Source: Abditibacteriaceae bacterium (GTDB taxonomy: Bacteria; Armatimonadota; Abditibacteriia; Abditibacteriales; Abditibacteriaceae). Taken from it: a stretch of 64,000 nt of DNA. Below, piece by piece: positions 33,363 to 57,917 of this stretch; positions within the stretch are counted from its first letter, which is position 1; the number at the start of each line of letters is the position of its first letter. The notes beneath the pieces are model-generated. The model did no database searches and was not told the origin of the DNA. It saw only the letters and a program-made list of their open reading frames with translations. Made by a program: the position numbers and the translations under genes. The stretch lies in contig JANPJS010000066.1 in the NCBI GenBank assembly GCA_031425655.1, forward strand, positions 1-64,000. The letters run 5' to 3'.

Positions 33363-33998
33363 ATGGCGACGCACGTTCCTTTCACCGACAATTACGAAGA
33401 CCTTTCGACGGATCGCGGCTTTCAATTTAAGTTCAACTGCGAACGCTGCGGCAACGGCCATATGTCGTCGTTTCAAGCCAACGCAGCGGGCATGGCCGGC
33501 GACGCCTTGCAAGCAGCGGGCAACATCTTTGGCGGGCTTTTAGGCCGCGCGGCGAATGCTTTCGATATTCAGCGCATGGTCGGCGGCCCGGCGCACGATA
33601 GCGCCCTGCGCCACGCCGTTGGGGAGATTTCGCCGCTCTTCGTGCAATGCAAACGCTGCGGCCAATGGGTCTGCCGCGAAGTCTGCTGGAACGATTCGCG
33701 CGGCCAGTGTGTGAACTGCGCGCCGCACATGGACGAAGAAATCAAAGCCATCGAAAGCGAAGCCACGATTCAGTCCATCCGCGAAAAAGCCATGAGCGCC
33801 GGTTTGGGCGCTCGTGTCAACGTGCAAAGCGCCGCCGCGCCGATACAGTGCCCATCGTGCGGCGCCGAAGTCGAGCTTGGCCAGAAGTTTTGCGGCGAAT
33901 GCGGCACGAACGTGCTGGCCAAGCCCCAATGCAAAGCGTGCGGCGCCGAAAACGAGCGCGGCATGAAATTTTGCGGCGAATGCGGCACGAAGTTGTAA
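33363..33998 (+). CDS. Double zinc-ribbon protein
   Basis: Multiple CxxC pairs, two KFCGECG. Confidence 0.85.
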   Translation: MATHVPFTDNYEDLSTDRGFQFKFNCERCGNGHMSSFQANAAGMAGDALQAAGNIFGGLLGRAANAFDIQRMVGGPAHDSALRHAVGEISPLFVQCKRCGQWVCREVCWNDSRGQCVNCAPHMDEEIKAIESEATIQSIREKAMSAGLGARVNVQSAAAPIQCPSCGAEVELGQKFCGECGTNVLAKPQCKACGAENERGMKFCGECGTKL

Positions 33999-34074
33999 AA
34001 GCCGCGAAGCGCGCAAAAGCCACAAAAAGTTAGCTTTTTGTGCCTTTTGTGCTTTTAAAACGCGACTTGGAAAT

Positions 34075-34170
34075 TGGTGCGAAGCTCGTAGCGGTCGTTG
34101 CGTAAGTCACCGGTGCCGCTGCCGGTTCGGGCCGCCGGATCGCCGTTCTAAGAGACAGGCATTTGGTGAC
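34075..34170. ncRNA. Possible structured RNA upstream of tRNA-Lys
   Basis: GC-rich non-coding tract with gtcacc/ggtgac and tgcc/ggca pairings; family not recognised. Confidence 0.3.
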
Positions 34171-34221
34171 GTTGTAATCTTTCAGACAATTCGCGTCAAG
34201 GGTTTACGGAATTTTTCTGGT

Positions 34222-34250
34222 TTGACTCTACGCCCTGAAACGACTATAAT
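34222..34250 (+). promoter_or_regulatory. Sigma70 promoter of tRNA-Lys
   Basis: TTGACT-17-TATAAT. Confidence 0.8.
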
Positions 34251-34264
34251 GTTTCGGGTTGTCT

Positions 34265-34337
34265 GGGTCGTTAGCTCAGTTGGTAGAGCAGGGGACTCTT
34301 AATCCCAAGGTCGCAGGTTCGACCCCTGCACGACCCA
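34265..34337 (+). tRNA. tRNA-Lys(CTT), CCA not encoded
   Basis: Cloverleaf GGGTCGT...ACGACCC-A; anticodon loop CT-CTT-AA; T loop TTCGACC. Confidence 0.95.
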
Positions 34338-34339
34338 TT
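34294..34339 (+). repeat. attL core
   Basis: gactcttaatcccaaggtcgcaggttcgacccctgcacgacccatt, identical to 54264-54309. Confidence 0.95.
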
Positions 34340-34419
34340 GTAAATTTGCGTTTCGCCTTATGTAGCAAGGTTTTTCGGGCTTCTACTCTACTCTCTGCCG
34401 TCTCCAAAAGGACACGGTT

Positions 34420-35442
34420 ATGCTCTTAACAGCAGGAGACTACCCAAGAACTGCAACAGCAGGAGACTCGTCTTCCAAACGTGGAAACAAGTCAAGCGAA
34501 GTTCGTCTCAGCGTCTCTGAACTCAAGGATTACCTTGAAGATTGGAACCTTGAAAGCCAACTTCGCCAACACACTCCGCAAAGCATTCTCTCGCGCAAAG
34601 ACCGCATCGGGAAATTTTTTTGGTTCTTGGAACACAAGAATTTTCAGAGTGTGGGCGTTGCTGAACTGCGCGCGTTTTTCCTTTATTGTGCCGAAGGCCA
34701 TTTGGAACAGGGTGGTCGGTGGGGCAACCCTACCCTTACAACTCCGATGCGCCCCATATCGGTGCAAGGCTATCATCGCATCATCAAGGCTTTCTTCAAT
34801 TATCTGGTTAATGAAGAAATCCTTGAGTCCAGTCCACTCAAGCGGATAAAACCGCCAGCGGCCAGAGCCGAAATCAAAAATCCGGTTTCTGATGAACACG
34901 TCGCAAAAATCTTGAAAGCGTGTCGTCAGTCCGTTTATTCGCGCCGTGACACAGCGATAGTGTTATTGCTGTTAGACACTGGTTTGAGAGCTTCAGAATT
35001 GTGCGGGTTGAAAATGTGTGATTGGGATGCACCGAGCCATTCTTTAAGAGTGTTGGGGAAAGGCAACAAATACCGCACCGCCTTCTTAGGATTGGCTGCC
35101 ACTAAAGCGATAAGCAGTTACCTTCGCAACAAATCTCGTCCATCAGACTGTCCGATTTTCCTATCCCAAAAGCAGGTTCCACTCTCAGCATCCGGCCTTT
35201 ACCAAATGATGGAAAGGCTTTCTCTAAAGGCAGGTGTGCCGAATCCCGGCGTTCATGCCCTGCGTCGCACCTTTGCCGTGAATATGCTCAAGGCAGGAGC
35301 CAATGTCTTTACCGTGCAAATGCTCATGGGGCATTCAACTCTGGATATGACCCGCCGCTACTGCAAAGTCGCTGAAGCCGATTGCGAAGAACAACACCGA
35401 AAATTCTCGCCTGCGGACAGAATTGGAACGCGCGGAAAATAG
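34420..35442 (+). CDS. Tyrosine recombinase/integrase
   Basis: DTGLRASE, GKGNKYR, HALRRTFA, MGHSTLDMTRRY. Confidence 0.95.
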   Translation: MLLTAGDYPRTATAGDSSSKRGNKSSEVRLSVSELKDYLEDWNLESQLRQHTPQSILSRKDRIGKFFWFLEHKNFQSVGVAELRAFFLYCAEGHLEQGGRWGNPTLTTPMRPISVQGYHRIIKAFFNYLVNEEILESSPLKRIKPPAARAEIKNPVSDEHVAKILKACRQSVYSRRDTAIVLLLLDTGLRASELCGLKMCDWDAPSHSLRVLGKGNKYRTAFLGLAATKAISSYLRNKSRPSDCPIFLSQKQVPLSASGLYQMMERLSLKAGVPNPGVHALRRTFAVNMLKAGANVFTVQMLMGHSTLDMTRRYCKVAEADCEEQHRKFSPADRIGTRGK

Positions 35443-35685
35443 GGCGGGATGGGAAACATGAAAAGGGTGTCACGTTCAAGTGATGCCCTTTTTGCTTTAC
35501 CCTTGAGAATTGGCTTGTCCTAAACTACCGTGTTACTTTATGGCCTTGCAGAAACAGACGTAAACTGAGCTTATGGGCTATCATAACCCCATCCCCGTTT
35601 AAAAACTCCAAGCGGAAGATTTCTAAGTCTCAAAACGGTGACACAGCGCAAGAGAAACTGCGGGAAACGCCGCCGGAGCATTAAC

Positions 35686-35868
35686 ATGAAACGATTTCAA
35701 TCTTGGCTTCCAGTTGGTCTTGTTTTGATGTTGGCCGTCACGGTTCAAGCCAGTTTTGTCTACAAAGACAAAGCCCAAATGATTGAAACGGCGGATGCTA
35801 TCGCCGTTGTTGAAATCACTGGCGTTCAAAAGCAAATACTGGACAAATCAACAAAAGGCGTCAGCTAA
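35686..35868 (+). pseudogene. Truncated secreted protein (N-terminal fragment)
   Basis: GGAG RBS, signal peptide, ADAIAVVEI; ends at the IS relic. Confidence 0.4.
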
Positions 35869-35869
35869 A

Positions 35870-36174
35870 GTTGACAAAGTGGTCATGGGCTATTGAAGCC
35901 GACGAAACTTTCAATGGTGGCAAGGCTCGGAATATGCATGACCATAAGCGTCACGTTCTGCTCCGCAGTGTTCACCAATGGCCTTGAAAACTCTTGGTGC
36001 CATTCAAATGGCACCGCCAAAGCGCTTACATTAGCGTCGAATCGTTCCACCTGTTCCGCTATTAAAATGAGCAGGCTTTCCGCTTTCAAGAGCGCAAAGG
36101 AAACGACGCTCAACGCTTTGAGAAAGTGCTAAAATCCGTGGTAGAACGCCGGTTGACTTACAGAGTTAATCGGC
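35870..36174 (+). pseudogene. IS1595-family transposase relic (internally deleted, frameshifted)
   Basis: IEADETFNGGKARNMH, TNGLENSW and YISVESFHLFRY*NEQAFRF...RRLTY across frames. Confidence 0.8.
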
Positions 36175-36228
36175 TGTCTTTCGGAATAAGAAAGCTGAAC
36201 GCGGGCCTAAAAAGGGAGGTGAGAGAAA

Positions 36229-37413
36229 ATGCCAACAGAGCGGACTGCATTATTCAATAGAGCGCGTATTTTGTGGTGCTGCCAGCAAAATAAACTTACA
36301 GTAAAGAATCTTGCTGATGACTTGGGCTATTCTCCCACCGCTCTAAACACTGCAATCAATAACGAAGGTGCTTTGACCATAGGTCAGCTACAAAAGATAG
36401 CCGATTATTTTCACCGTCCCCTATTGTTCTTTTTTGAACAGGGGCCAATTAATGAGGCACAGGCGGACTCCCCGCAATTTCGCACAATCAGTAGCCAAAA
36501 ACCTGAACTGGCCCGCAAAATAAAAATTCTTGTGAAACGGGCCGAGGAGCAGCGACAGGTATTCATAGAACTCCTTGAAGGCGAGGAGGACTATACCAAC
36601 ACCAATTGGCAGACGAATCGGATTCAAAAGGCTCCGCAAGAAACGGTTAAAGCATTTGCGGTTAGAGTGCGAGAATGGTTAGGAATTGAAGATAAAGAAG
36701 ATAAATTCAGGGGGAAAAAGGATTTTGAGTATTACCGAATCGCCCTTGAGAAAATTGGAATGCTTGTTTTTGTCACAAATGGTTATGCCGGTAAATGGCA
36801 GATTGAGAAAGACAGTCCCATTAGAGGATTTTCTTTGTATTTTGATTTTTACCCCGTCATTGTTGTCAAAAAACAAGACAGCCCTGCTGCTCAATGCTTT
36901 ACATTGATGCATGAATTGGCACATCTTTTATTGCATCGGATAAGTTCCATTGATGAGGAAAGTGACCTTCATAATCATCAGGGTGCGGAGAGAGAGTCCA
37001 ATGAATTTGCTGGTAATTTGTTAGTGCCAGATTATTTGCTGAATGGAATCAGTTTGACTCACTTCCCTTTCTCTGAGGTGAACCAATACGATAATTACTT
37101 GAAGAGTTACCGCGATGCATGGGGGGTGAGCGGCGATGTTATCGTTCGTCGTTTATACGATGAGGGTTATTTGGGGCAGGATATTTATAGGCAGTATCTG
37201 GCATATAAAACCAGCATCCCGCAACCAGCACCTTCGGGCGGAGGCCGTTATCGCTACGGGGAACCTTTAAAAATGTTCGGCAGACTCTTTGTGGGCGTGG
37301 TGTTGGATGCACTTCATGACGAACAAATAACAATCAATAAGGCGAGTAAGTATCTGGACAATTTGCAGATTACCGACTTACGCCAATTGGAGCGAAGAAT
37401 TGCACACTTTTGA
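36229..37413 (+). CDS. XRE HTH + ImmA/IrrE metallopeptidase
   Basis: N-terminal HTH; RGFS, FTLMHELAH, ERESNEFAGNLLVP. Confidence 0.92.
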   Translation: MPTERTALFNRARILWCCQQNKLTVKNLADDLGYSPTALNTAINNEGALTIGQLQKIADYFHRPLLFFFEQGPINEAQADSPQFRTISSQKPELARKIKILVKRAEEQRQVFIELLEGEEDYTNTNWQTNRIQKAPQETVKAFAVRVREWLGIEDKEDKFRGKKDFEYYRIALEKIGMLVFVTNGYAGKWQIEKDSPIRGFSLYFDFYPVIVVKKQDSPAAQCFTLMHELAHLLLHRISSIDEESDLHNHQGAERESNEFAGNLLVPDYLLNGISLTHFPFSEVNQYDNYLKSYRDAWGVSGDVIVRRLYDEGYLGQDIYRQYLAYKTSIPQPAPSGGGRYRYGEPLKMFGRLFVGVVLDALHDEQITINKASKYLDNLQITDLRQLERRIAHF

Positions 37414-37945
37414 TGCGTCTTCAATGATTTATGCATGGGAGAATTATCCTATCAAAGTATTTCCATTCCTTTGGGAGTGGATAGCCGAGCGCATCAATTC
37501 GGGTGACTTCACGATGCCTGAACCTGCTTATGATGAGTGCCGCACTAACGCGCCTGATTGCTATAAATGGTTAAAGGGGTGGAAATTGCAGCGCCATCAA
37601 ACTAACACTAAAATTATTAGTCATTCTTTTGCAATTAGAGCGTTATTAGAGATTGATATTAACGGGTATCATAGCGATGGAGTGGGTGAAAATGATATTT
37701 TTATAATTTCTACAGCTAAGGAATTGACTCTTACATTGGTAGCTAATGAAGCAATTCAATCTATCCCACCAAGAAATATGTCACGGTATAAAATTCCTGC
37801 CGTGTGCAACATGGCAAAGGTAGGAGTTAAGTGCATCTCTTTTTTAGATTTACTCAATACTTTGCAACCTGACTTAACTAAATACATAAAGGTGTCAACA
37901 GGTGAGATAAATCTTGAGCCTAAAGGGACAGAGGAGTCAGAGTGA
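37400..37945 (+). CDS. DUF4411 family (PIN-like) protein
   Basis: FDASSMI, YPIKVFPFLW, NDIFIISTA, KIPAVC; overlaps the ImmA gene end. Confidence 0.85.
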   Translation: MHTFDASSMIYAWENYPIKVFPFLWEWIAERINSGDFTMPEPAYDECRTNAPDCYKWLKGWKLQRHQTNTKIISHSFAIRALLEIDINGYHSDGVGENDIFIISTAKELTLTLVANEAIQSIPPRNMSRYKIPAVCNMAKVGVKCISFLDLLNTLQPDLTKYIKVSTGEINLEPKGTEESE

Positions 37946-38120
37946 AAATTCAATCGCAATCAAGCAACACGCAGTCAATCCTTTTACCGACTCTAAACAG
38001 GCCGTCGCAAAAGTGCTGTCGGTCTCGAAAATAGAATCGGATGAGCAAACGCGCCGTTTCCAAGAGTCGAACCCGAAAAGCGCGGATAACAAACCAAAGA
38101 AACGCAAAAATGCCGCGTGA
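37914..38120 (+). CDS. Small basic ORF or relic, possibly IS1595-associated
   Basis: NPF...AVAKVLSVSK.E pattern; start uncertain. Confidence 0.3.
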   Translation: MSLKGQRSQSENSIAIKQHAVNPFTDSKQAVAKVLSVSKIESDEQTRRFQESNPKSADNKPKKRKNAA

Positions 38121-38138
38121 TAATCACGCGGCATTTTT
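38106..38138. terminator. Bidirectional terminator directly 3' of the tRNA-like RNA
   Basis: aaaaatgccgcgtga-taa-tcacgcggcattttt. Confidence 0.85.
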
Positions 38139-38139
38139 A

Positions 38140-38253
38140 TACTCTCGGCGGGACTCGAACCCGCACGCCTTGCGGCTACGGCTTGTGTGAGAGAGCATTC
38201 AAAGTAGGCACTCTCACACAAGCCGCTGCGTCTGCCAATTTCGCCACGAGAGC
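38140..38253 (-). ncRNA. tRNA-Leu-like RNA with extended (49-nt) anticodon arm
   Basis: Acceptor GCTCTCG/CGAGAGT-A; D arm GCG-AAATTGGCAGA-CGC; variable arm GCC-GCAA-GGC; T arm GCGGG-TTCGAGT-CCCGC; 16-bp anticodon stem. Confidence 0.9.
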
Positions 38254-38834
38254 ATTGCGCTAAGTATAGCGGTTTAACAACCGCCTACACAGATTCGATT
38301 GGGCGATTCAAGTGTATTCTCCACACTTCTGTCTTCTCGTGCCTTATGCACCCTGTTACTCCGAGCGCAAGCAGCCGAACGACCAAGTTATTCACTACCG
38401 GCACTACCTTGAACAAATACATTTCATTCGCTTCTTTTCTGACACTTAAAAAGCACCCAACCGAATATACCGCCAGCAACACACGCAAGCAGCACCCGAA
38501 CCCAAAGTTCGGTGAACTCACCACGAATACCCATTAGAAAGGCAAACAAGTGAATGCCGATTGTGACCTTAATGACTTTGTGCTTGGATATTCTGTCCAT
38601 TTTCGTCCGTATTGAGTTCTGACTGTCGCACACAACCAATCATGAATGTCGATTTAGGTTGAACTTCATGTCAAATTTCATCGCACCTTTACTGCTGAAT
38701 CCAAACGCCTGAGATTGAGAAAACGATGGAATTGCCATGCTTATGAGAAGCCCTTCAAACAGGGATGATTCAGAGCGCCCATCTGTGAGCTTGCAATGTT
38801 CACGGTAAAAGCGTCGCGCGCCCGACGTGTTGCT

Positions 38835-39581
38835 TCAACCGTCGTTATTCTGCGTCACCACCTGCTGCCCACTAACATTAACATTCATTTGATTCGCCAC
38901 GATTGCCGGAACTCTTCTTAGGTCTCGCAAGGCGCGGAGACTTCGGCAAAATAGACGATGAAATCTTTCCACTGTCAAAGCCGCTTGCTCAACGGCTTCG
39001 GCTTCCGTGATGCGTGGCGGCGTCCACTCATCGTCATCTTCAGTTTTCATATTGCATTGAGTCGTAGTTAGATGACAGAAATGCTTCAATGCTTGCTCGT
39101 AAAGTGTTTGAGCTTGTGCGAGATTTTGGATAAGAATCTCTTCAGCCCCATTCCGTGGCTCATATTGGCGCCGTAGCTCGGCCAGAAGAACGATGAATCT
39201 TGCCCGTTCGTATGGAGTGCTATTAAAACCTTCGGTCGCCTTCGCTGCTCTATGGCCGCTTGACAGTTCTGCAAGCGCAGATTCCAGGATTTCGTTCCAC
39301 CTGTCTTGCGCGAGTTCGGGGACAGCTTTTTTAAGTTCGTTCAATTGTAGCCAAGACAAGGAATTAGCCGGTGTGCTTTGAATTTGTTCAACTCGCGCGG
39401 CTATCACGGCTTCATCTAACTGAACTTCGTTGGTGACAAATTCGCCAGCAACCTTCGTCACACGCAGATGTTTAGTGAATCGCTCCGAACGCTGCTGTGC
39501 CCTTGCGAGTTCGGAATTTGGCATTTCAGGCAATTGCTTAACAACAGCGGTTGAAGTGCTAAACCGTTTTATTGATTTCAT
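38835..39581 (-). CDS. Hypothetical helical protein
   Basis: Last gene of the rep operon; C-terminal LRALRDLRR...QMNVNV; overlaps upstream stop. Confidence 0.7.
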   Translation of the reverse strand: MKSIKRFSTSTAVVKQLPEMPNSELARAQQRSERFTKHLRVTKVAGEFVTNEVQLDEAVIAARVEQIQSTPANSLSWLQLNELKKAVPELAQDRWNEILESALAELSSGHRAAKATEGFNSTPYERARFIVLLAELRRQYEPRNGAEEILIQNLAQAQTLYEQALKHFCHLTTTQCNMKTEDDDEWTPPRITEAEAVEQAALTVERFHRLFCRSLRALRDLRRVPAIVANQMNVNVSGQQVVTQNNDG

Positions 39582-39895
39582 GGTTTTAGGCTCCCTTCGA
39601 TTTGACGAATAGAATCTCGCACCGTGCGCCAATTAGCTTTTGCATTGTTGGCTGATTTACGCTCTTGCCGCTCCTGCTCTTTGCGCTCGGCACGGGCTTT
39701 CTTAACTACATCAACTTCAGCAGCCCGAACATAACGCTTGCTACGTCGCCCATTGGCCTGCGAACGCACATAGAAGTAAGGGCCATGATAATAGTCGGGG
39801 CTTACGGAACACCGGCAGTTAGGCTTCCCGCAGGAGACGTATTCAGCGCAGACCGCGCTAATCTTGGGGGTGGATTTTTTAAATTTTGTTTTCAT
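39578..39895 (-). CDS. DUF6788-like protein
   Basis: CGKPNCRC...HGPYFY. Confidence 0.7.
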   Translation of the reverse strand: MKTKFKKSTPKISAVCAEYVSCGKPNCRCSVSPDYYHGPYFYVRSQANGRRSKRYVRAAEVDVVKKARAERKEQERQERKSANNAKANWRTVRDSIRQIEGSLKP

Positions 39896-42402: not shown

Positions 42403-45400
42403 CTACACCGACTTTAACTGCACTTGGAGCGTTTGCGGCTCGTAGCAAACCATGATTTGCGGATGCCACGTTCCCAACTGGCCCCAGTTATTGGTGGCAG
42501 AGAGCCAGCGATTGGCAGCGTTATGTTTAGCGCGGTCTTGGTCGTCAATGGCACCTTTGATTTCCAAAAGCATAAGTCGCTTGTCCATCAGTTCAACTAA
42601 AAAGTCCGGCTCGTAGAAATGCTCGATGCCCTGATATTCGTAGGGAATCCGCAGGCCTAAGCGGTCGTTGCGTGCGTAGCAGCGCACCACGCCAGAGCTT
42701 TCCAGTGCGAACGCTGATGCTTGCTCCCAACTTTGGGTATCAGCAACAACGCCGGATAGATGGCTCTTCTGAGTGGCCTTTACAGGACGCGCCGTAACAA
42801 AGTTCACATCACCTGTTGTGCCGATGGGTTTAAAGCGATTGAGCAACGGCAAAAGCGGCGCTTCGCCTGCGCTGTCGTCCGGTTCGATGGCGTCGCGCAA
42901 ACGTCCAACGACACGCCCGACATACGTTTGCAAGGCGATTTCGCAGGGATGCTGACCGTTGAAACGCACCTTGCCTTCTTTGTCCGGCGTGCCAATATAG
43001 GCGTCAACGAAGCGAAATATTTGCGGGAAAAGTTGATGCCGCGCTTGCAAGCTAAGAACTCGCCCTTTGCGGTCATCGCTGTCGCGCTGTGTTACCAAAT
43101 CGGTCAGCAGTATTTGAGCGATGCGAAATTTGATGGTTTGTAAATGGTTGGCGGCATAGAAGGCCGTGCGGTCTTGGCTTTCCCATGTGAAGCCACCATT
43201 GGGGCCACTTTCCATTACGCTCGGAGCTACAAAGGTTGCGGTTGGAATGGAATAAGGTTCGATATGCAGTTCGTCCATCGCTTCAACATCGCATTTCAGT
43301 GCGAACTTAGATAACGAAAACGCATAGCCTTCTACATTGGGAAATCGCAATTCAAAACCGGCGCGTTCGGGCATGGCTTTGACGGCGGTGTAAACCGGCG
43401 GTGGGGGCGGGGGCTTATCATTTGGTTGTCCCTTAGCAGCCGTGAGTGAGAATGGAATGCCGTAAATATCGGCAACTTCTTCGCGCAGCAAGCCTGTGGT
43501 GGGGTCAACATCATAGGAAAGGCGGCGCAAAGCTCTCCCTACCACTTGTTCACAAAGCAACTGACTACCAAAAGCGCGCACGCCTAAAATATGAGTGACG
43601 TTGTTCGCGTCCCAACCTTCGGTCAGCATAGACACCGAAACCACACAGCGCACCTGCTCTCCGGGTTCTCCGCGCCGACCTACTGTCGCTACGACTTTGC
43701 GAAGTGCTTCCGCCGCCGCGTCTTTTTTTACTTTGGGGTCGTCGCTCTCGGCTTCGGCTAACAGTTTGGAGTCAATGCGAATGGTGCGTTTTTCCCCGTC
43801 CGCATTTGCTAATTCGGGCAGCACATCACTTGGGCCATAAACCGTGCGCTTGGTTAGTTTTTTAGCTTTTTGCTTCGGCTTGGTTTCCGTTTGGGCGTCG
43901 TCGCTGTCGCTCTCATCGTCAACTTCTGCTTCAACGTCGGCCAGAGTCACAGGCATTTCTTCTTCACGCTCGCCGGAAATCATTTCATAAAAGAGTTTGG
44001 CGACGTTGGTGTTATCACACACGACAATCATAACGGGCGGAATGGTCTCATCGCCGCCACGTTCTTCGTGGGCGTGCAGCGTGCGAAGCCATTGCCCCGC
44101 AAGTTGCACGAGCGCGGGTTGTGCCTTGCGGTAAATGACTTCGGGCTTGAGTTTCTTATTGCCCGATTGCCGTTCGGCGCTGGACGTGCCTTCGTGAATC
44201 CATTTCCAAAGGTTGTAAAATTCCGGCTCTGGCCTGCCTGTGTTGCTTTGAACGGGCACACGCGGCGTTTTCACGATGCCGCTCTCGATGGCATCACGCA
44301 AGCCAAAGTCGCTAACCAGCCACGGAAAGGGGCGCCCTTCCGAGTGGCCACTTCCCGCGAGATAAAAGGGCGTAGCCGATAAATCCACACAGAGCGCGAT
44401 ACCGGCCTTGCCGTCCTTTCCCGCACGGCTATTGTTGAGCTTGTCCAGTCCTTCTAACCACAAGCGGGCTTTTTCTGCTTCTTTGTCGGCGCCTTCTTCG
44501 GTGGCGAGCAGGCTTTCATCGTGCTGCGTATTGTCATTGGTCGCGGGGCGCCAGCAGTGATGACCTTCATCGTTCAGCACCATAATCGGCATCTTGGGGT
44601 AAAGGTCGCCCAATAATCGCCGCGCGAAATCATCGGGCGTCTCCATGCCTTTGTTGATGACGCGAGAGCGAAAGCCAGCTTCGGAATTGCCGGTGTCGGG
44701 CGCGAATTGGTGCCAGTTAGTGATAAGGACGCGCCCTGTTTTCAGAGCCGCCATCCATTTTCCCGGCACAATGTCGAACTGCTCGAAATAGTTGTTTTCG
44801 ATGTCGGGGCGTAGCACCTGCAACCGCTCTTTAACGGTCAGGTTGGGCGCGATGATGAGCGCGGCACTGGGAAAAATGGTGCTTTGTGGATTCTTGGCGT
44901 GATTGCAAAAAGCCCATGCCAGCAATAGCGCCATGACTACGGTTTTGCCGCTGCCTGTTGCCATCTTGCAGCCGACGCGATTCAAAGTGAGCGGGTAATT
45001 TGGCGAAGGGTCAATTAGCGATGGAACGATTTCGTTTATCTCAGCATGAAAACTGGGGCGCTTGCCGGTCATCATTGCCAACAAATCGTTATCGGTCAGT
45101 TCAAAGTTGTGGAAGCCGGTTGAGCCGGAGCGTCCGGGAAAGCGCATTTCGGCCAAATAGACGACGGTTTCCACGGCTTCGCGCTGGCAAAAGAAAAACC
45201 GTCGTTCGCGCTCTGCTGAAAACCAATGGGCGAACAGGTCTTTAGTGACGTTGGTGGCGCCGCGATAGCCGCTTTCTCGCCAGCGACGCACATCGCTCCG
45301 CAGCAAGTTGACAAGGGTTAGCTCAACGTAGTTTTCTTCGATGGCAAACGACAGGCGAGCTTGCGCTTCGGATTTGTAATCGTAGCCCGCAGGTCGGCGC

Positions 45401-45504
45401 GTGGGAATGACTTCCAACAAGGCGTTATCGGCAGAACGGCGCCAGTGCTGGATGGGTTCCGCGTAAGGCGAATTGAGAATCGGCGATTTTTGGTCGTTTT
45501 GCAT
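42403..45504 (-). CDS. Type III restriction enzyme Res subunit
   Basis: KMATGSGKT, NDEGHH, DLSATP, SMLTEGWD, YEPDF...LEIKG. Confidence 0.92.
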   Translation of the reverse strand: MQNDQKSPILNSPYAEPIQHWRRSADNALLEVIPTRRPAGYDYKSEAQARLSFAIEENYVELTLVNLLRSDVRRWRESGYRGATNVTKDLFAHWFSAERERRFFFCQREAVETVVYLAEMRFPGRSGSTGFHNFELTDNDLLAMMTGKRPSFHAEINEIVPSLIDPSPNYPLTLNRVGCKMATGSGKTVVMALLLAWAFCNHAKNPQSTIFPSAALIIAPNLTVKERLQVLRPDIENNYFEQFDIVPGKWMAALKTGRVLITNWHQFAPDTGNSEAGFRSRVINKGMETPDDFARRLLGDLYPKMPIMVLNDEGHHCWRPATNDNTQHDESLLATEEGADKEAEKARLWLEGLDKLNNSRAGKDGKAGIALCVDLSATPFYLAGSGHSEGRPFPWLVSDFGLRDAIESGIVKTPRVPVQSNTGRPEPEFYNLWKWIHEGTSSAERQSGNKKLKPEVIYRKAQPALVQLAGQWLRTLHAHEERGGDETIPPVMIVVCDNTNVAKLFYEMISGEREEEMPVTLADVEAEVDDESDSDDAQTETKPKQKAKKLTKRTVYGPSDVLPELANADGEKRTIRIDSKLLAEAESDDPKVKKDAAAEALRKVVATVGRRGEPGEQVRCVVSVSMLTEGWDANNVTHILGVRAFGSQLLCEQVVGRALRRLSYDVDPTTGLLREEVADIYGIPFSLTAAKGQPNDKPPPPPPVYTAVKAMPERAGFELRFPNVEGYAFSLSKFALKCDVEAMDELHIEPYSIPTATFVAPSVMESGPNGGFTWESQDRTAFYAANHLQTIKFRIAQILLTDLVTQRDSDDRKGRVLSLQARHQLFPQIFRFVDAYIGTPDKEGKVRFNGQHPCEIALQTYVGRVVGRLRDAIEPDDSAGEAPLLPLLNRFKPIGTTGDVNFVTARPVKATQKSHLSGVVADTQSWEQASAFALESSGVVRCYARNDRLGLRIPYEYQGIEHFYEPDFLVELMDKRLMLLEIKGAIDDQDRAKHNAANRWLSATNNWGQLGTWHPQIMVCYEPQTLQVQLKSV

Positions 45505-45507
45505 AAG

Positions 45508-45849
45508 TTATGCTGGCGGTTTCTCTATCAATTGAGATGGGGAAGTTTTTTCTTGCTCCACTTGGGTTTTAGCGTCCCTAACTTTAGCGGAGTTCAAGTC
45601 CATCACCAATCCTGAAACACAACCCGATTCGTTAAACGTGAGTTTTTCCCTGTCAACAAAAGCATCGCCGATAGACTCCCCGTTCTCATCAAAAATTGGA
45701 ACAAATATCTTACTCATTGAACAACCCCTAAAATAATTACAAATTGGTTCTCGCAGAAATTCGCGTTCTACCGAACTGATGTGGATATAAACGTCACCGA
45801 AATTGGCGAATGACTCAACAGAATGATTGTCGTTTATATCCTTGTCCAA
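45508..45849 (-). CDS. Small hypothetical protein between mod and res
   Basis: Fills the gap in the operon orientation; AT-rich. Confidence 0.5.
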   Translation of the reverse strand: MDKDINDNHSVESFANFGDVYIHISSVEREFLREPICNYFRGCSMSKIFVPIFDENGESIGDAFVDREKLTFNESGCVSGLVMDLNSAKVRDAKTQVEQEKTSPSQLIEKPPA

Positions 45850-45864
45850 TTATCGTGAGTTCAC

Positions 45865-48800
45865 TCATCCCAAATCCAGCACCTTCATCACTTCGTTACC
45901 GCGCGGGTCAATCACTTTCACGGCGGCGCGGGCATGGGAGCCTTTAGGAAAGGGCAAGCTAACAGTGCCGCTAAAGGACGAAACGTCAATCGAGCCTTTG
46001 AGAGCTTTGTCAATTTTGTCCCACGCGCTCTTGTCGGGAAAGAAAGCCTGCGTGATGCAAAACGTGCGGCCATCGTAATCGCTATCAAGGAACCACGCCG
46101 CGACTTTTTCTTGATTGGTGGGCAGGATTTCGTTGGTCACAGGGTCGAAAATATCCATGCCTTCCATCTCGATTTGCCATTGTCCTTCGTCAGCCGTTTT
46201 GAGATTCACGCGCGGCGAACCAAAGACCGTGAATAACTGGCTTCCGGGAGTGACTTTGAGCAAGCCGTTCATCGCGGGATTCACGTCGGGGCGAATTTGC
46301 GCCATGTGCAGTTGCACGCGCCCACCGCTTTCGATGAGAGACGATGCACCGTCATCGAAGGCGAAACCAGCAAAAATTGCGGCATCGTAGCCAAACTTAT
46401 AGGCGGCACGTTGCACTTCTTCAACTTGTTTGGAAGAAATCGGGCCGTATTGTGGGCCAAAGGAAACGATGGCGCGCACGGTCGCAGTTTGGCCGGTTTC
46501 GTCTGTCCATTCGTATTCGCCTTCGGCATGAACGGGCGTATTGCCCAATGACTTGGCTTCCAGTTGTGAAAACGTGATTTTCTTGTTTCCCGGAAAGGTG
46601 AGACCATCGCCGCGCAATAGCGAAATCAGGTTCTCGATGTAAGCCGCCACGTTTTCCACTTCCATCGCGGGTTTGGGCGTTACGAAGCTCACTTTGACCG
46701 GCGGCGTGAAGGTTTCCAGTTCTTCGGGAGCGCCGTCAAATTCTACGACGCTGGCTTCTTCCAAACTCATTTCCGGTGGCTGCACTGCTTCAACGGTGAA
46801 GGGGCCGGAAACGCGCACCACGCCTTTGACGATTTCAGGTTTGTCGTAAAGTGTTTCGCTTTCGGCGTTGGCGGCGATGCACGCATTGACGGCATCCATC
46901 TTGGCCCGCCACGCTTTGCGGTATGCTTCAACCCCGCTTGTCAAGGCAGTGGGATAGCTCTCGTCGGTGTCGAACGGCACCGTCCAATGTTCAAAGCGGT
47001 CGGGTAAATCGAGACGGCGCTTATCGGCATCAGTCGGTTTTTTGATACGCGTCAGTTGGTCTTTCAACGTGCGCCGCGCTGAGGAGTTAACTTCGTTCAA
47101 CGCCACATTACAGGCTTCCAGCGATTTATCCATTTGCGGATTCCACTCTTCAAAAATCGGGTCAAGGTGTGGATTCTGAGCGATGGATTTGAGCATAATG
47201 TGCGGCACTACTTCGCAATCGAATGTTTGCGGTGGCAACTGTGCGCCGCTTTCATCTTTAACGCGCAATCCCTTGACGTTGTCGGCTTCTTCCTTCACAT
47301 TGAGTGGGCGTAGTTTGTATTGGTCGAATCTTGCGGTTAGGATACGCTGCCTTGCAATAGAAAGCGCCACACGCGATGTATCGCAGGTTATCCAACGCCG
47401 TCCCCATTGCTCCGCGACAAATGCTGTTGTCCCACTACCGCCCGTTGGGTCAACCACCAAATCACCGGGGTCAGTGGTCATTAACATACAACGTTCAATA
47501 ATTTTGTTGTTTGTTTGCACTACATAGGCTTTTTCACTCGCATCAAAACCCCATCTCACATCCGTCCACAGATTGTTTATAGGTGATGCGGGAAAATCCT
47601 TTAATCTTCTTAGATATGAAACTGACGTATCGCGCGTAATAAGCCTTCCCGATTCTCCCAACCGTCTTAATCCAGCAATGCTCGTTTTCCAGTATTGACT
47701 ATTACCCGGACGAAAAACGCGCCCTTCAAAATCGAAGGGGTCACTTCCGGGTGGCCGTTGGGACGTGGTTGCACTTGGGCGAAATCTTGAAGCTCCGTAT
47801 GGTATTGGAGTAGCACCAGAAATCTCATCCGCAGTCATTGTCCGAGTGCAACCATTGTCAAGTTGAAGATATTTATACTCGCCTGCGCCATCTTCGACGG
47901 AACTCTTCACCCGATGTATTTGCCTGTATTTTAAATGAGCTTTGTCTTTCGCATACCAAATCAAAAAGTCACATACAGTTCCCAATAGCTCCGATGATGC
48001 ACCGGCAGTCTTTGCAATAGTAATCACGCTCACAAAATTTTCTGGCCCAAAGACTTCATCCATCAAAGCGCGGACGCGATGCAAATTTTCATCGGAGATT
48101 TGCACGAAAATCGAGCCAGAATCATGCAGCAGTTCGCGCGCAACGGTTAGCCGGTCACGCAAGTAAGTGAGATACGAATGGATGCCTAATTCCCAAGTGT
48201 CGCGGAAGGCGCGCACCGTTTCCGGCTCGCGGGTCAAATCCTTGTCTTGGTCTTTCACATCGCGCTGGCCGATTTTCGGCTGAAAGTTCGACGCGAATTT
48301 GATTCCATACGGCGGGTCGAAATACATCATCTGCACTTGCCCCGCCAAGTTTTCGCGTTGCGCCAGCGATGACATGACTTGCAGGCTATCGCCGAGAATC
48401 AGCCGGTTGCTCCAATCCACTTCATGCTGATAAAATGAAACCGCTGCGGTGTAATCCTGCTCAGGGTCGGCAAACAGGCTCTTTTGCGGGACTTCTCGCT
48501 GTGCGACTTTCAAAATCGCCTGTGTGGAAACTCGTTCGTGAATATGGAGCGCGATGGGGTCAACCAACAGTTCCCTTTTCTCGCGCTTGCCCGCCCATTC
48601 CAACCACGGCTCATGGTCAGCATAGAGCCGCCGCAGTTCCGCTACTTCATCGGGCATTAGCGGCGACTTAGCCGCTTTTTCGAGCAGGTTTTCCAGCCGC
48701 GCCTGCATATCGAATTGCAACTGCGGTGTGCGGTGCGCCGAAAATTCATACTTCGTTTTGGGAAGCAGCGGCACCGGCTTGTCACCGGCCAGCGTAGCGG

Positions 48801-48888
48801 GCGGATTGTTCAACCGCTTATCATCGTGGCGCAGGTCGGCCACATCGAGCAAAGAAGGCGTCTTCGGAGATTTGGGAAGTCGGGCCAT
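45865..48888 (-). CDS. Type III R-M methyltransferase (Mod)
   Basis: NRLILGDSL, YFDPPYGI, DPTGGSGTT, VKVIDPRGNE. Confidence 0.92.
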   Translation of the reverse strand: MARLPKSPKTPSLLDVADLRHDDKRLNNPPATLAGDKPVPLLPKTKYEFSAHRTPQLQFDMQARLENLLEKAAKSPLMPDEVAELRRLYADHEPWLEWAGKREKRELLVDPIALHIHERVSTQAILKVAQREVPQKSLFADPEQDYTAAVSFYQHEVDWSNRLILGDSLQVMSSLAQRENLAGQVQMMYFDPPYGIKFASNFQPKIGQRDVKDQDKDLTREPETVRAFRDTWELGIHSYLTYLRDRLTVARELLHDSGSIFVQISDENLHRVRALMDEVFGPENFVSVITIAKTAGASSELLGTVCDFLIWYAKDKAHLKYRQIHRVKSSVEDGAGEYKYLQLDNGCTRTMTADEISGATPIPYGASRFRPSATTSQRPPGSDPFDFEGRVFRPGNSQYWKTSIAGLRRLGESGRLITRDTSVSYLRRLKDFPASPINNLWTDVRWGFDASEKAYVVQTNNKIIERCMLMTTDPGDLVVDPTGGSGTTAFVAEQWGRRWITCDTSRVALSIARQRILTARFDQYKLRPLNVKEEADNVKGLRVKDESGAQLPPQTFDCEVVPHIMLKSIAQNPHLDPIFEEWNPQMDKSLEACNVALNEVNSSARRTLKDQLTRIKKPTDADKRRLDLPDRFEHWTVPFDTDESYPTALTSGVEAYRKAWRAKMDAVNACIAANAESETLYDKPEIVKGVVRVSGPFTVEAVQPPEMSLEEASVVEFDGAPEELETFTPPVKVSFVTPKPAMEVENVAAYIENLISLLRGDGLTFPGNKKITFSQLEAKSLGNTPVHAEGEYEWTDETGQTATVRAIVSFGPQYGPISSKQVEEVQRAAYKFGYDAAIFAGFAFDDGASSLIESGGRVQLHMAQIRPDVNPAMNGLLKVTPGSQLFTVFGSPRVNLKTADEGQWQIEMEGMDIFDPVTNEILPTNQEKVAAWFLDSDYDGRTFCITQAFFPDKSAWDKIDKALKGSIDVSSFSGTVSLPFPKGSHARAAVKVIDPRGNEVMKVLDLG

Positions 48889-48957
48889 AGCGTTTTTATT
48901 GTAAACGATTTCGGCAACCGACATTCAGTTTTTAGGAGCGATTTGAAAACAAGTCGC

Positions 48958-54263: not shown

Positions 54264-54309
54264 GACTCTTAATCCCAAGGTCGCAGGTTCGACCCCTGCA
54301 CGACCCATT
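54264..54309 (+). repeat. attR core (3' part of tRNA-Lys)
   Basis: Identical to 34294-34339. Confidence 0.95.
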
Positions 54310-54319
54310 TTCCAGATTT

Positions 54320-54562
54320 TTACTCCGCATAAACACCGAGTTTTCGGGCTTGTAGTTGTTTTTTCGCCGTCTCCAAAAGGAAACGCCCGCGCCTTTCACA
54401 GAACGCCCAAAAAGCGATGTGGGCAGCTTTGTCAGGCCAGAGAAACCTTATTGACTGACATCGGTAACGTAGAACAACTTCTTGGGTTGTCTCCGGCAGT
54501 TGAATGAGAAATTGCCGGCTGGGGTTGGCGTCAAGCAGCGTTTCAAACGGTTTCAGCTTCAT
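54320..54562 (-). pseudogene. Truncated third gene of the ars operon (DUF6428-like N-terminus)
   Basis: MKLKPFETLLDANPSRQFLIQLP, coupled to the aquaporin stop, then runs into att-flank sequence. Confidence 0.45.
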
Positions 54563-55816: not shown

Positions 55817-57247
55817 ATGTCCCAACCGATTCATATTCCCGAAGAAACGCAAGACGAAAAGCGTCCTGAAATTGTGCGCGATGCGCAAGGTTTAGTGCCC
55901 ACGCGCGTTGCCGCCGAACGCGCGCTTTTGGCGCAAGTGATTTACGACCAGCATCCCGGCCCGGCCTTAACCGGCACCCAAATCGAGTCGGGGCGGGCCG
56001 CCGACAATCACGAATCGCCCGAAGAAAGTTTGGAAGAACTGGCCGGGTTAGCCGAAGCCGCCGGCGCAGTCGTAGTTGGACGCGCCACGCAAAAGCGCTC
56101 CCGGCCTGATCCGGCCACGCTGTTCGGCAAAGGCAAAGTGCAGGAAATCGCCGAAATGTGCCGCGAACTGAAAGTGGATGTCATCATCGTGGATTGCGAT
56201 CTTTCCCCCGCGCAAGGCCGCAATCTGGAAAAACGGCTCGAAGTGCGCGTCATTGACCGTTCGGAGCTGATTCTTGATATTTTCGCGCGACGTGCGCGCA
56301 CTCGTCAGGCTAAATTGCAAGTCGAGTTGGCGCAGCTTCGTTATCAACTGCCGCGATTGAAGCGGATGTGGACTCACCTTGACAGCATCAGCGGTGGCGT
56401 CGGCACGCGCGGGCCGGGCGAAACGCAGCTCGAAACCGACCGGCGCTTGGCCGACACGCGCATCGCCCTGCTCGACGAGCAATTGTCGGCGCTGCGGCGC
56501 CAAAAGCAGGTCGAAGCCGAAGGCCGCCTCGATTTTGAAGGCGGCGCCCTTGTCGGCTACACCAACGTCGGCAAAAGCGCGCTGCTGAACGCTCTCTCGA
56601 ACCCGACCGGCAAGCAGGTTTTTGTCGCCAACCAATTATTCGCCACATTGGGCGCCGCCACGCGCCGCATTCCTCTGGGCGCCGGGCGCGACATATTGCT
56701 TTCCGATACCGTCGGCTTCGTGCGGCGCCTGCCGCATCACTTGGTTGAATGCTTTCATTCGACTTTAGCCGAAGTGCAAAGCGCGAGCTTTTTGCTGCTC
56801 GTCGCCGACGCCGCCGACCCCGAAGCCGACGAAAAACTCGCGTCGGTGCGCGAGGTTTTAGGCACGCTCGAAGTCGCGGAAACACCGATGATTTTAGTGC
56901 TGAATCAATGCGACCGCCTGAGCGAAACCGAACGAGAAAACCTGCTGGCGCTGCATCCCGGCGCGGTTTTGACCTCGGCTTTAACCGGCGAAGGACTGGA
57001 CAAACTCGCGGCGCGCATCAAGGAAGTGCTGGAACAAGACGACGAAGAAATCGCCCTCACGTTGGACGCCGCATCGAGCCACAGCGGCAAAATGCTCTCA
57101 GATTTGTCGCGACACGGTCGCATTTTGCAGCAGGAATGGGGCACCGACGCCGAAGGCAACAAGCCGCGTGTTTACGTGCGCGCCCGCCTGCCGCGCCGCT
57201 GGCGCGAAAAGCTCGGCATCCGCGATTCCGCCGTGATGAATGGATAA
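55817..57247 (+). CDS. hflX: GTPase HflX
   Basis: LILDIFARRA, GPGETQLETDRR, GYTNVGKS, DTVGF. Confidence 0.95.
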   Translation: MSQPIHIPEETQDEKRPEIVRDAQGLVPTRVAAERALLAQVIYDQHPGPALTGTQIESGRAADNHESPEESLEELAGLAEAAGAVVVGRATQKRSRPDPATLFGKGKVQEIAEMCRELKVDVIIVDCDLSPAQGRNLEKRLEVRVIDRSELILDIFARRARTRQAKLQVELAQLRYQLPRLKRMWTHLDSISGGVGTRGPGETQLETDRRLADTRIALLDEQLSALRRQKQVEAEGRLDFEGGALVGYTNVGKSALLNALSNPTGKQVFVANQLFATLGAATRRIPLGAGRDILLSDTVGFVRRLPHHLVECFHSTLAEVQSASFLLLVADAADPEADEKLASVREVLGTLEVAETPMILVLNQCDRLSETERENLLALHPGAVLTSALTGEGLDKLAARIKEVLEQDDEEIALTLDAASSHSGKMLSDLSRHGRILQQEWGTDAEGNKPRVYVRARLPRRWREKLGIRDSAVMNG

Positions 57248-57790: not shown

Positions 57791-57866
57791 GCCTAAACAG
57801 ACTCGTTCCGCCCTCAACGACGGTCATGACACCAAGAACGCCATTCGTTGCGAGTATAAAAACCGT

Positions 57867-57917
57867 CGCTGGCGCGAAAAGCTCGGCATCCGCGATTCCG
57901 CCGTGATGAACGGATAA
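57867..57917 (+). repeat. Duplicate of the hflX 3' end
   Basis: 51 bp, one mismatch versus 57197-57247. Confidence 0.92.

Follow-up and report, generated by a model that had tools for sequence, protein, structure and literature searches.

The closest described system to the RNA gene considered here is RNA1 of phage T5 (rna1, NC_005859 30501-30644), an RNA of 144 nt that is annotated as a 'tRNA-like stable RNA with unknown functions', and T5 RNA2 is similar to it. Allo-tRNAs are described as irregular, partly non-translating class II tRNAs that, in soil bacteria, have toxin-antitoxin genes and transposons nearby, and in these accounts they are defined by 8/4 or 9/3 acceptor/T stems with the anticodon loop kept (Mukai et al., PMC5389517; review PMC7609411). 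The bacterial Y RNA YrlA is presented as mimicking a tRNA, with its D, T and acceptor-like arms, one such RNA being cut by RNase P and gaining CCA, and by the same account it requires a Ro60-binding module and a nearby Ro60 gene (PMC4201824). An artificial counterpart is the tRNA scaffold engineered by Ponchon and Dardel, which as described keeps the acceptor, D and T arms, carries a hairpin cargo in place of the anticodon loop, and is stable in E. coli (PMC3753655). Phage T4 also encodes stable RNAs of unknown role within its tRNA cluster, rnaC and rnaD (species 1 and 2 RNA), of which rnaC has a T arm.

The gene under study, hereafter the query, lies in a window of 64,000 nucleotides (the whole stretch of DNA analysed) from an Abditibacteriaceae bacterium. 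It encodes a Leu-type tRNA shell in which a hairpin stands in place of the anticodon (Table 1), and its family is closest to T5 RNA1 among the known systems, being a cross-phylum variant of that barely described build. Descriptions of neither T5 RNA1 nor this family were found in the literature searched, which was thin on subscription and older papers. Like the query, T5 RNA1 has a Leu-type D arm, a 5-bp anticodon stem and a long hairpin for a loop, with the variable and T arms kept; on model R1, a family model built from the query and scoring it at 91.7 bits, T5 RNA1 reaches 44.1 bits, below ordinary Leu tRNAs. It differs in an arm of about 57 nt that ends in a UAA-AA remnant, as in the type-A genes described below, whereas the query family has a rod of 16-19 bp without an anticodon remnant. 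T5 RNA1 also belongs to a lytic-phage tRNA cluster, whereas the query family mostly stands alone, and a pairwise alignment of the two RNAs agrees in the D and T arms only, with no homology between the inserts.

The toxin-antitoxin context is common to the allo-tRNAs and the query family. However, the query and its aligned relatives have 7/5 stems and no anticodon, unlike the allo-tRNAs as their published definition has them. Neither a nearby Ro60 gene nor a Ro60-binding stem, the features that mark Y RNAs in the YrlA account, was seen at the query. The engineered scaffold, by its description, is artificial and class I, whereas the query is natural, Leu-type and furnished with a rod of constant length. 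The T4 RNAs rnaC and rnaD were rejected as relatives, since they have no Leu-type D arm and no match to R1.

Table 1. Features of the RNA gene and of the element that carries it, in window coordinates
Feature	Position	Strand	Details
attL, 3' part of tRNA-Lys(CUU) (34264-34338)	34294..34339	+	46-nt repeat
Tyrosine integrase of the element	34420..35442	+	PF00589, E 3.6e-34
HTH-ImmA/IrrE gene	36229..37413	+	Pfam; NCBIfam spr1629-type antitoxin below cut-off
DUF4411 PIN-like gene	37400..37945	+	Pfam; ESM Atlas PIN clusters 0.94-0.95
Intrinsic-terminator-like hairpin	38105..38139	-	16 pairs; T-rich on both sides
RNA gene, Leu-type tRNA shell with hairpin for anticodon	38140..38253	-	114 nt, without encoded CCA; A73 at 38140
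T arm	38148..38164	-	Rfam match and fold
Long variable arm	38167..38176	-	3 bp, GNRA loop
Anticodon arm	38178..38226	-	49 nt; 5-bp stem, U32-U33, insert, A37-A38; 18 bp in total
Hairpin replacing positions 34-36	38185..38219	-	35 nt; 11-nt terminal loop at 38197-38207
Leu-type D arm	38228..38244	-	3-bp stem, A14, A15, G18, G19
-10-like hexamer TATACT	38263..38268	-	9 nt upstream of the RNA gene
Type III restriction-modification genes of the element	42403..48924	-	
attR	54264..54309	+	identical 46-nt repeat

A Leu-type shell without an anticodon

The original prediction read this minus-strand sequence as a tRNA-Leu body with a greatly lengthened anticodon arm, and both the letters and the tRNA-Leu body were confirmed. 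Over its full length the gene matches the Rfam tRNA family on the minus strand (RF00005, 44.2 bits), 41 bases of the anticodon arm staying unaligned, and no other Rfam family matches it. The predicted fold is a cloverleaf with a minimum free energy (MFE) of -58.1 kcal/mol (z -5.36), which none of 200 shuffles equalled. ARAGORN, one of the tools proposed for checking the gene, missed it when introns were not searched for and found it only when they were allowed.

The anticipated 49-nt anticodon arm with its 16-bp uninterrupted stem is present in the MFE fold, where the stem includes one G.U and leads to a U.U mismatch, 2 bp and an 11-nt loop, and the insert hairpin has a z of -4.4 against dinucleotide shuffles. 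Since positions 27-33 and 37-43 are as in a normal arm, exactly positions 34-36 are replaced by 35 nt. The 7-nt loop resembling that of tRNA-Gln(UUG), which had also been proposed, is absent from the MFE fold and would require an isolated A-U pair beyond a 2-nt bulge. The hairpins resemble one another in sequence scarcely more than shuffles do, so that such a loop is no family feature, and Gln-loop mimicry was rejected because the terminal loops are unrelated across the family.

The claim that no excision yields a Leu anticodon held: whichever of the 18 prefix/suffix excisions is made to arrive at a 17-nt arm, the triplet is one for Val, Asp or His, and the query has no 7-nt loop with a Leu anticodon, as a decoding tRNA-Leu would. 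The LeuRS identity set (A73, U8-A14, G18-U55, G19-C56 and the long variable arm) is present in the sequence. The query has G1.U72, as does the Leu(UAA) of its host, and the host Leu genes, like the query, are without an encoded CCA. Charging by the Aquifex LeuRS is reported to require A73, the tertiary core and the variable arm but to do without the anticodon arm, a part that matters in editing (PMC2377443).

The hallmarks of a group I intron, namely a catalytic core and a terminal G, were not found in the 35-nt insert, which has no Rfam intron match and no G at its would-be 3' splice site. A C4/CI-type antisense RNA, with loops complementary to its own element, was ruled out by the longest complement across the 20-kb element, which is 10 nt and comes from the stem. 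As for the signals, the predicted TATACT box is in place, although a sigma-70 scan upstream of the gene detected no -35 and no passing -35/-10 pair. The terminator was confirmed directly downstream and is likely common to the RNA gene and the convergent DUF4411 operon. Contigs of run X1 cover 33800-39800 with no differences and no joints, at a depth of 11.7-12.3, with the proviso that X1 is possibly the source sample and its contigs would then not be independent. The gene is real and no artefact, and it is probably not a product of decay.

The integrative element and its host

The RNA gene sits on an integrative element, as predicted, of about 20 kb, which is integrated at tRNA-Lys(CUU), bounded by the 46-nt att repeats, equipped with an integrase and set apart by a low GC content of 0.43-0.53 versus 0.55-0.59 in the flanks. 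The HTH-ImmA/IrrE and DUF4411 genes are a predicted toxin-antitoxin pair and convergent neighbours of the RNA gene, the DUF4411 gene ending 195 bp from it. An HNH protein, two ASCH proteins and DUF932 are also encoded, and neither a TROVE protein among the 22 element proteins nor a Y RNA match in Rfam at the query was found. In a type III toxin-antitoxin system the RNA antitoxin is expected to consist of tandem repeats that lie upstream of the toxin gene and are co-transcribed with it, whereas this RNA gene is single-copy, convergent and downstream of DUF4411, and the candidate was discarded. DUF4411 as an obligate partner was also rejected, since none of 10 other DUF4411 loci holds the RNA within 1.5 kb, and no DUF4411 relative was found on viral contigs.

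Two further repeats were observed in the window. One, of 45 nt (78%), lies about 35 bp downstream of each att site (34372-34416 and 54341-54385), with one copy upstream of the integrase and the other beyond attR, and is possibly an integrase arm or the remnant of an earlier element. The other is the 3' end (57194-57247) of a gene which, from its translation, we take to be HflX-like; it is duplicated 670 bp downstream (57864-57917), and this suggests a second small insertion.

The host genome (G000) has ordinary Leu UAA, CAA, CAG, GAG and UAG genes, so the query is a spare copy. No close DNA homologue was found among 41 relatives and 50,697 phage records, which returned only ordinary tRNA-Leu or T-arm matches, and 30 genomes of the class contained no long relative except two RNAs at Ro60 loci. 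tRNA shells with an insert in the anticodon loop, presumably Y-RNA-like from its motif, adjoin Ro60/TROVE genes at L358:2340-2476 (G021), L359:2601-2738 (G012) and G000:C249:712-1088. Short, class I variable arms were seen in the tRNA-Leu(UAG) of the host (G000:C175:1885-1957) and in three Leu tRNAs of an array (G000:C61:187-594).

A family defined by its build

The family was searched for by build and not by sequence, through patterns that combined a Leu D arm, a long gap and a T arm and limited the arm length to about 33-69 nt. These yielded 28 loci in GTDB, 97 in metagenomes, and 2 and 33 in viral contigs, YU at positions 32-33 being required in the metagenome scan and in the 33-locus viral scan. 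Typing of the 107 distinct cores demanded at least 6/7 acceptor pairs, a 5-bp stem closing the long arm and a variable region of 9-21 nt, and if two stems were possible, preference went to the one with AA before it. The outcome was 28 cores of type B (query-like), 24 of type A, 12 with a normal arm and 43 others. L150, a duplication, was dropped from type B and L215 from type A, leaving 27 distinct type-B genes, the query included, and 23 of type A; within type B, L204 and L266 have the same insert.

The original prediction had named homologues with a normal loop, the insertion being unique, as the outcome that would speak against it; instead, the 27 genes share one build. They come from Planctomycetota, Chloroflexota, Acidobacteriota, metagenomes and one viral contig, and the seven named hosts are five Planctomycetota, one Chloroflexota and one Terriglobales. 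A73 is found in 26 of the 27 and an encoded CCA in 12. The arm measures 41-50 nt in 24 genes and its helix 16-19 bp in 21, and 24 inserts fold with z < -2, a property that was no part of the filter. U33 and A37-A38 occur in all eight genes from the scan without the YU requirement and are usual across type B. The sequence of the rod is another matter: insert identity is 0.48 versus 0.46 shuffled, with 0.70 for the shell, and the terminal loops, of 3-11 nt, have no common motif or size. In the clade of L165, L232, L203 and L264, shells are 0.83-0.93 alike and inserts 0.42-0.58, yet each gene keeps 18-19 bp.

The covariation check that had been suggested came out differently for shell and insert. 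In alignment A3, which holds 24 of the 27 genes (the length outliers L229, L241 and L268 were left out), the shell scores 0.549 versus 0.170 shuffled and at most 0.169 slid, and part of this follows from the filter, which included acceptor and lower-stem pairing. Two-sided changes occur at all seven acceptor pairs, and the acceptor, anticodon and variable stems of the family are compensated. In the insert, RNAalifold found no column-fixed pairs, because bulges shift the register, and the structure there rests on per-sequence folding. Folding of the inserts favours the transcribed strand (26 members, Wilcoxon p 0.02), the excess of G.U over A.C alone is not significant (27 vs 17, p 0.17), and a -10-like hexamer lies upstream of 9 of the 27 genes versus a 5% background. 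A full set of five Leu tRNAs is present in five of the seven named hosts (G406, G409, G410, G411, G412), as in G000, while only 2 and 3 Leu genes were seen in G407 and G408, respectively. No Rfam family besides tRNA matched any shell, the sole other match in the loci scanned being int-alpA RNA elsewhere in L029. The proposal of a maintained, non-decoding mimic in place of a decayed tRNA is thus supported by the 27 genes of the same build, the compensatory changes of the shell and the retention of A73 and the LeuRS determinants.

Gene neighbourhoods

Neighbours were counted at the 19 loci whose DNA exceeds 1.7 kb in length. A PIN or HEPN gene lies within 1.5 kb at five of them (the query, L200, L203, L204 and L232), and the other 14 have none in the stretch examined. 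At 20 type-A loci none of the 55 nearest genes encodes PIN or HEPN, an unmatched control that is confined to nearest genes and largely to one clade. This proximity has to be read in islands that are toxin-rich anyway. Restriction-modification or DISARM-like genes surround L152 and L161, restriction-modification or other defence genes also occur at the query, IS1595 is near L175 and L203, and a terminase stands beside L289; L148, L159 and L167 lie amid housekeeping genes. An all-against-all BLAST of the neighbours gave pairwise links only and no fixed partner gene. Homologous unannotated proteins (33% identity), for which no family was found, adjoin two members (L165:293-1090 and L175:3322-4278).

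Type-A genes and wider shells

The 23 type-A genes (L146:138-247, L147, L156, L160, L163, L170 and 17 more) have YU, a hairpin insert of 20-45 nt between U33 and position 34, and then CAA or UAA followed by AA. The insert is a candidate short bacterial tRNA intron. In five Planctomycetota genomes no long-arm Leu(CAA) turned up other than a type-A gene; the tRNA arrays of G402 and G403 additionally contain a short-arm Leu(CAA) of 76 nt, and at least in L146 the type-A gene adjoins gmk-rpoZ. The inserts of L183 (UAA) and L198 (AAA) are near-identical and their genes one anticodon base apart, which shows that types A and B intergrade; type B therefore likely descends from an insert-bearing tRNA-Leu(YAA) whose anticodon was lost.

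A looser pattern matched at least 120 loci in viral contigs (L021-L140). Among the matches listed, the Leu-type shells comprise 111 distinct cores, 93 of them with a perfect acceptor, and A73 in 86 of 100; their middles are unrelated and they stand mostly alone in phage operons. In 73 viral shells, also among the matches listed, antisense complementarity showed no excess over controls. These viral shells, among the matches listed, often follow directly on a small hairpin whose loop is GGAAAGAC-like. Viral contigs also hold Ser/Tyr-type shells with a replaced anticodon region (L306-L345), in which at least 6/7 acceptor pairs form in 33 of 38 distinct matches and most Ser-type shells have A73 instead of the usual G73; L310 and L325 resemble a tRNA-Leu(UAA) with the canonical 37/38 intron. 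Other Leu-type shells, whose 17-nt arm is normal and carries UUC or UUU (Glu/Lys), have a variable region of 42-60 nt (L180:4994-5120, L194, L205, L224, L227, L230, L261), and are possible missense suppressors.

Interpretation

That the query is a selected non-decoding RNA of some kind is probable. Starting from the observed shell, rod, family-wide compensation, extra-copy status and neighbours, we tentatively favour one such role, to which we give somewhat less than an even chance: a spare tRNA-Leu whose anticodon has become an 18-bp rod would be made, processed and leucylated without decoding, and would act as an uncuttable decoy for the tRNA-targeting toxins of the mobile and defence islands in which many copies are found. 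The RNA would be transcribed from its own promoter and matured by RNase P and CCA addition; it may then be leucylated, given that A73, U8-A14, G18-U55, G19-C56 and the variable arm's orientation have been kept, and the rod would hold it out of the ribosomal A site. Anticodon nucleases contact the anticodon stem together with bases 32-33 and 37-38, and PIN/HEPN-type or acceptor-end toxins would bind the kept stem and these bases and meet no single-stranded anticodon to cut. A decoy is the first choice because of the spare status, the island context and this kept stem with its flanking bases. In its favour count the 27 genes of the same build, with compensated shells and free-sequence rods, the PIN/HEPN genes at 5 of 19 loci, the full Leu sets in most named hosts and the annotation of T5 RNA1, of the same build, as a stable RNA. 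Against it count the lack of a fixed partner, the 14 loci without PIN/HEPN, the three loci among housekeeping genes, the non-significant G.U excess and the two hosts with only 2 and 3 Leu genes.

A neutral history is unlikely. Spare tRNA-Leu(YAA) copies would gain a palindromic insert within the anticodon loop, and DNA template switching, which can produce hairpins without selection, would perfect the hairpin during slow decay. The rarity and patchiness of the family suit such relics, since any long-shell pattern occurs in only 2 of 401 genomes from the phylum of the host and 2 of 301 from that of G411, as do the scarcity of long relatives in the class and the weak G.U signal. However, decay sits badly with intact acceptor pairs that carry many two-sided changes, with a nearly invariant A73, with arms of 41-50 nt where 33-69 were allowed, and with strand-biased folding and an enriched upstream -10-like box. 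Less likely again is a natural tRNA scaffold unrelated to toxins, whose shell would confer stability and whose rod would be a ligand that RNase III or a dsRNA-binding protein reads by shape. A helix of constant length but free sequence speaks for it, as do the Y-RNA-like inserts in the same shell beside Ro60 genes (G021, G012) and the engineered scaffolds, described as using exactly this site (PMC3753655). Yet no protein neighbour is common to the loci, and no antisense target emerged, either within the query's element or, among the matches listed, for the viral shells.

Lower still we place a dedicated Leu donor for a non-ribosomal enzyme (a Leu/Phe transferase, cyclodipeptide synthase or aminoacyl transferase), with the rod barring ribosomes. 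The kept LeuRS determinants would be explained, and the phage Ser/Tyr-type shells with replaced middles and largely intact acceptors fall into line, SerRS likewise ignoring the anticodon; but no aminoacyl-transfer enzyme was found among the neighbours scanned, and A73 in most Ser-type shells is at odds with it. The least likely reading makes the gene an intron-bearing precursor, from which the insert would be cut out after U33, as may happen in type A, to give a tRNA charged with Leu and bearing a foreign anticodon (Val CAC for the query), which would act as a missense suppressor. The regular plan of the type-A genes, their standing as sole long-arm Leu(CAA) in five Planctomycetota genomes with gmk-rpoZ adjacent in at least one locus, and the intergradation through L183 and L198 all lend weight to it. 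It is opposed by a resulting triplet that varies (about 20 kinds among the 28 type-B rows, L150 included), by the 12 of 27 genes that would carry A34, which is rare in bacterial anticodons, by the missing bulge-helix-bulge motif and omega-G, and by the annotation of T5 RNA1 at its full 144 nt.

The decoy reading can be widened into a proposal that we hold to be unlikely. The genes would form an undescribed class of hollow class II tRNAs in bacteria and mobile elements, Leu-chargeable shells with a rod of which the length, not the sequence, is read; they would serve as RNA antidotes against both toxins that cleave tRNA and defence nucleases, and would originate from a housekeeping tRNA-Leu(YAA) with a protein-spliced intron of 20-45 nt after U33. 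A bacterial tRNA intron of that kind, short, protein-spliced and located after U33, was not found in the literature searched.

Significance

Such genes are skipped by finders without an intron search and classed by Rfam as weak tRNAs, and a recurring RNA design has therefore gone uncounted. T5 RNA1, long annotated without a function, is now placed in a family with clear rules: the Leu identity set, U33, A37-A38 and a rod of 18 bp are retained, and the sequence of the rod is left free. The type-A genes, in turn, suggest that housekeeping tRNA-Leu genes of bacteria can contain short introns that are not ribozymes. If the decoy reading is true, these RNAs would represent a new counter-measure to tRNA-targeting toxins.
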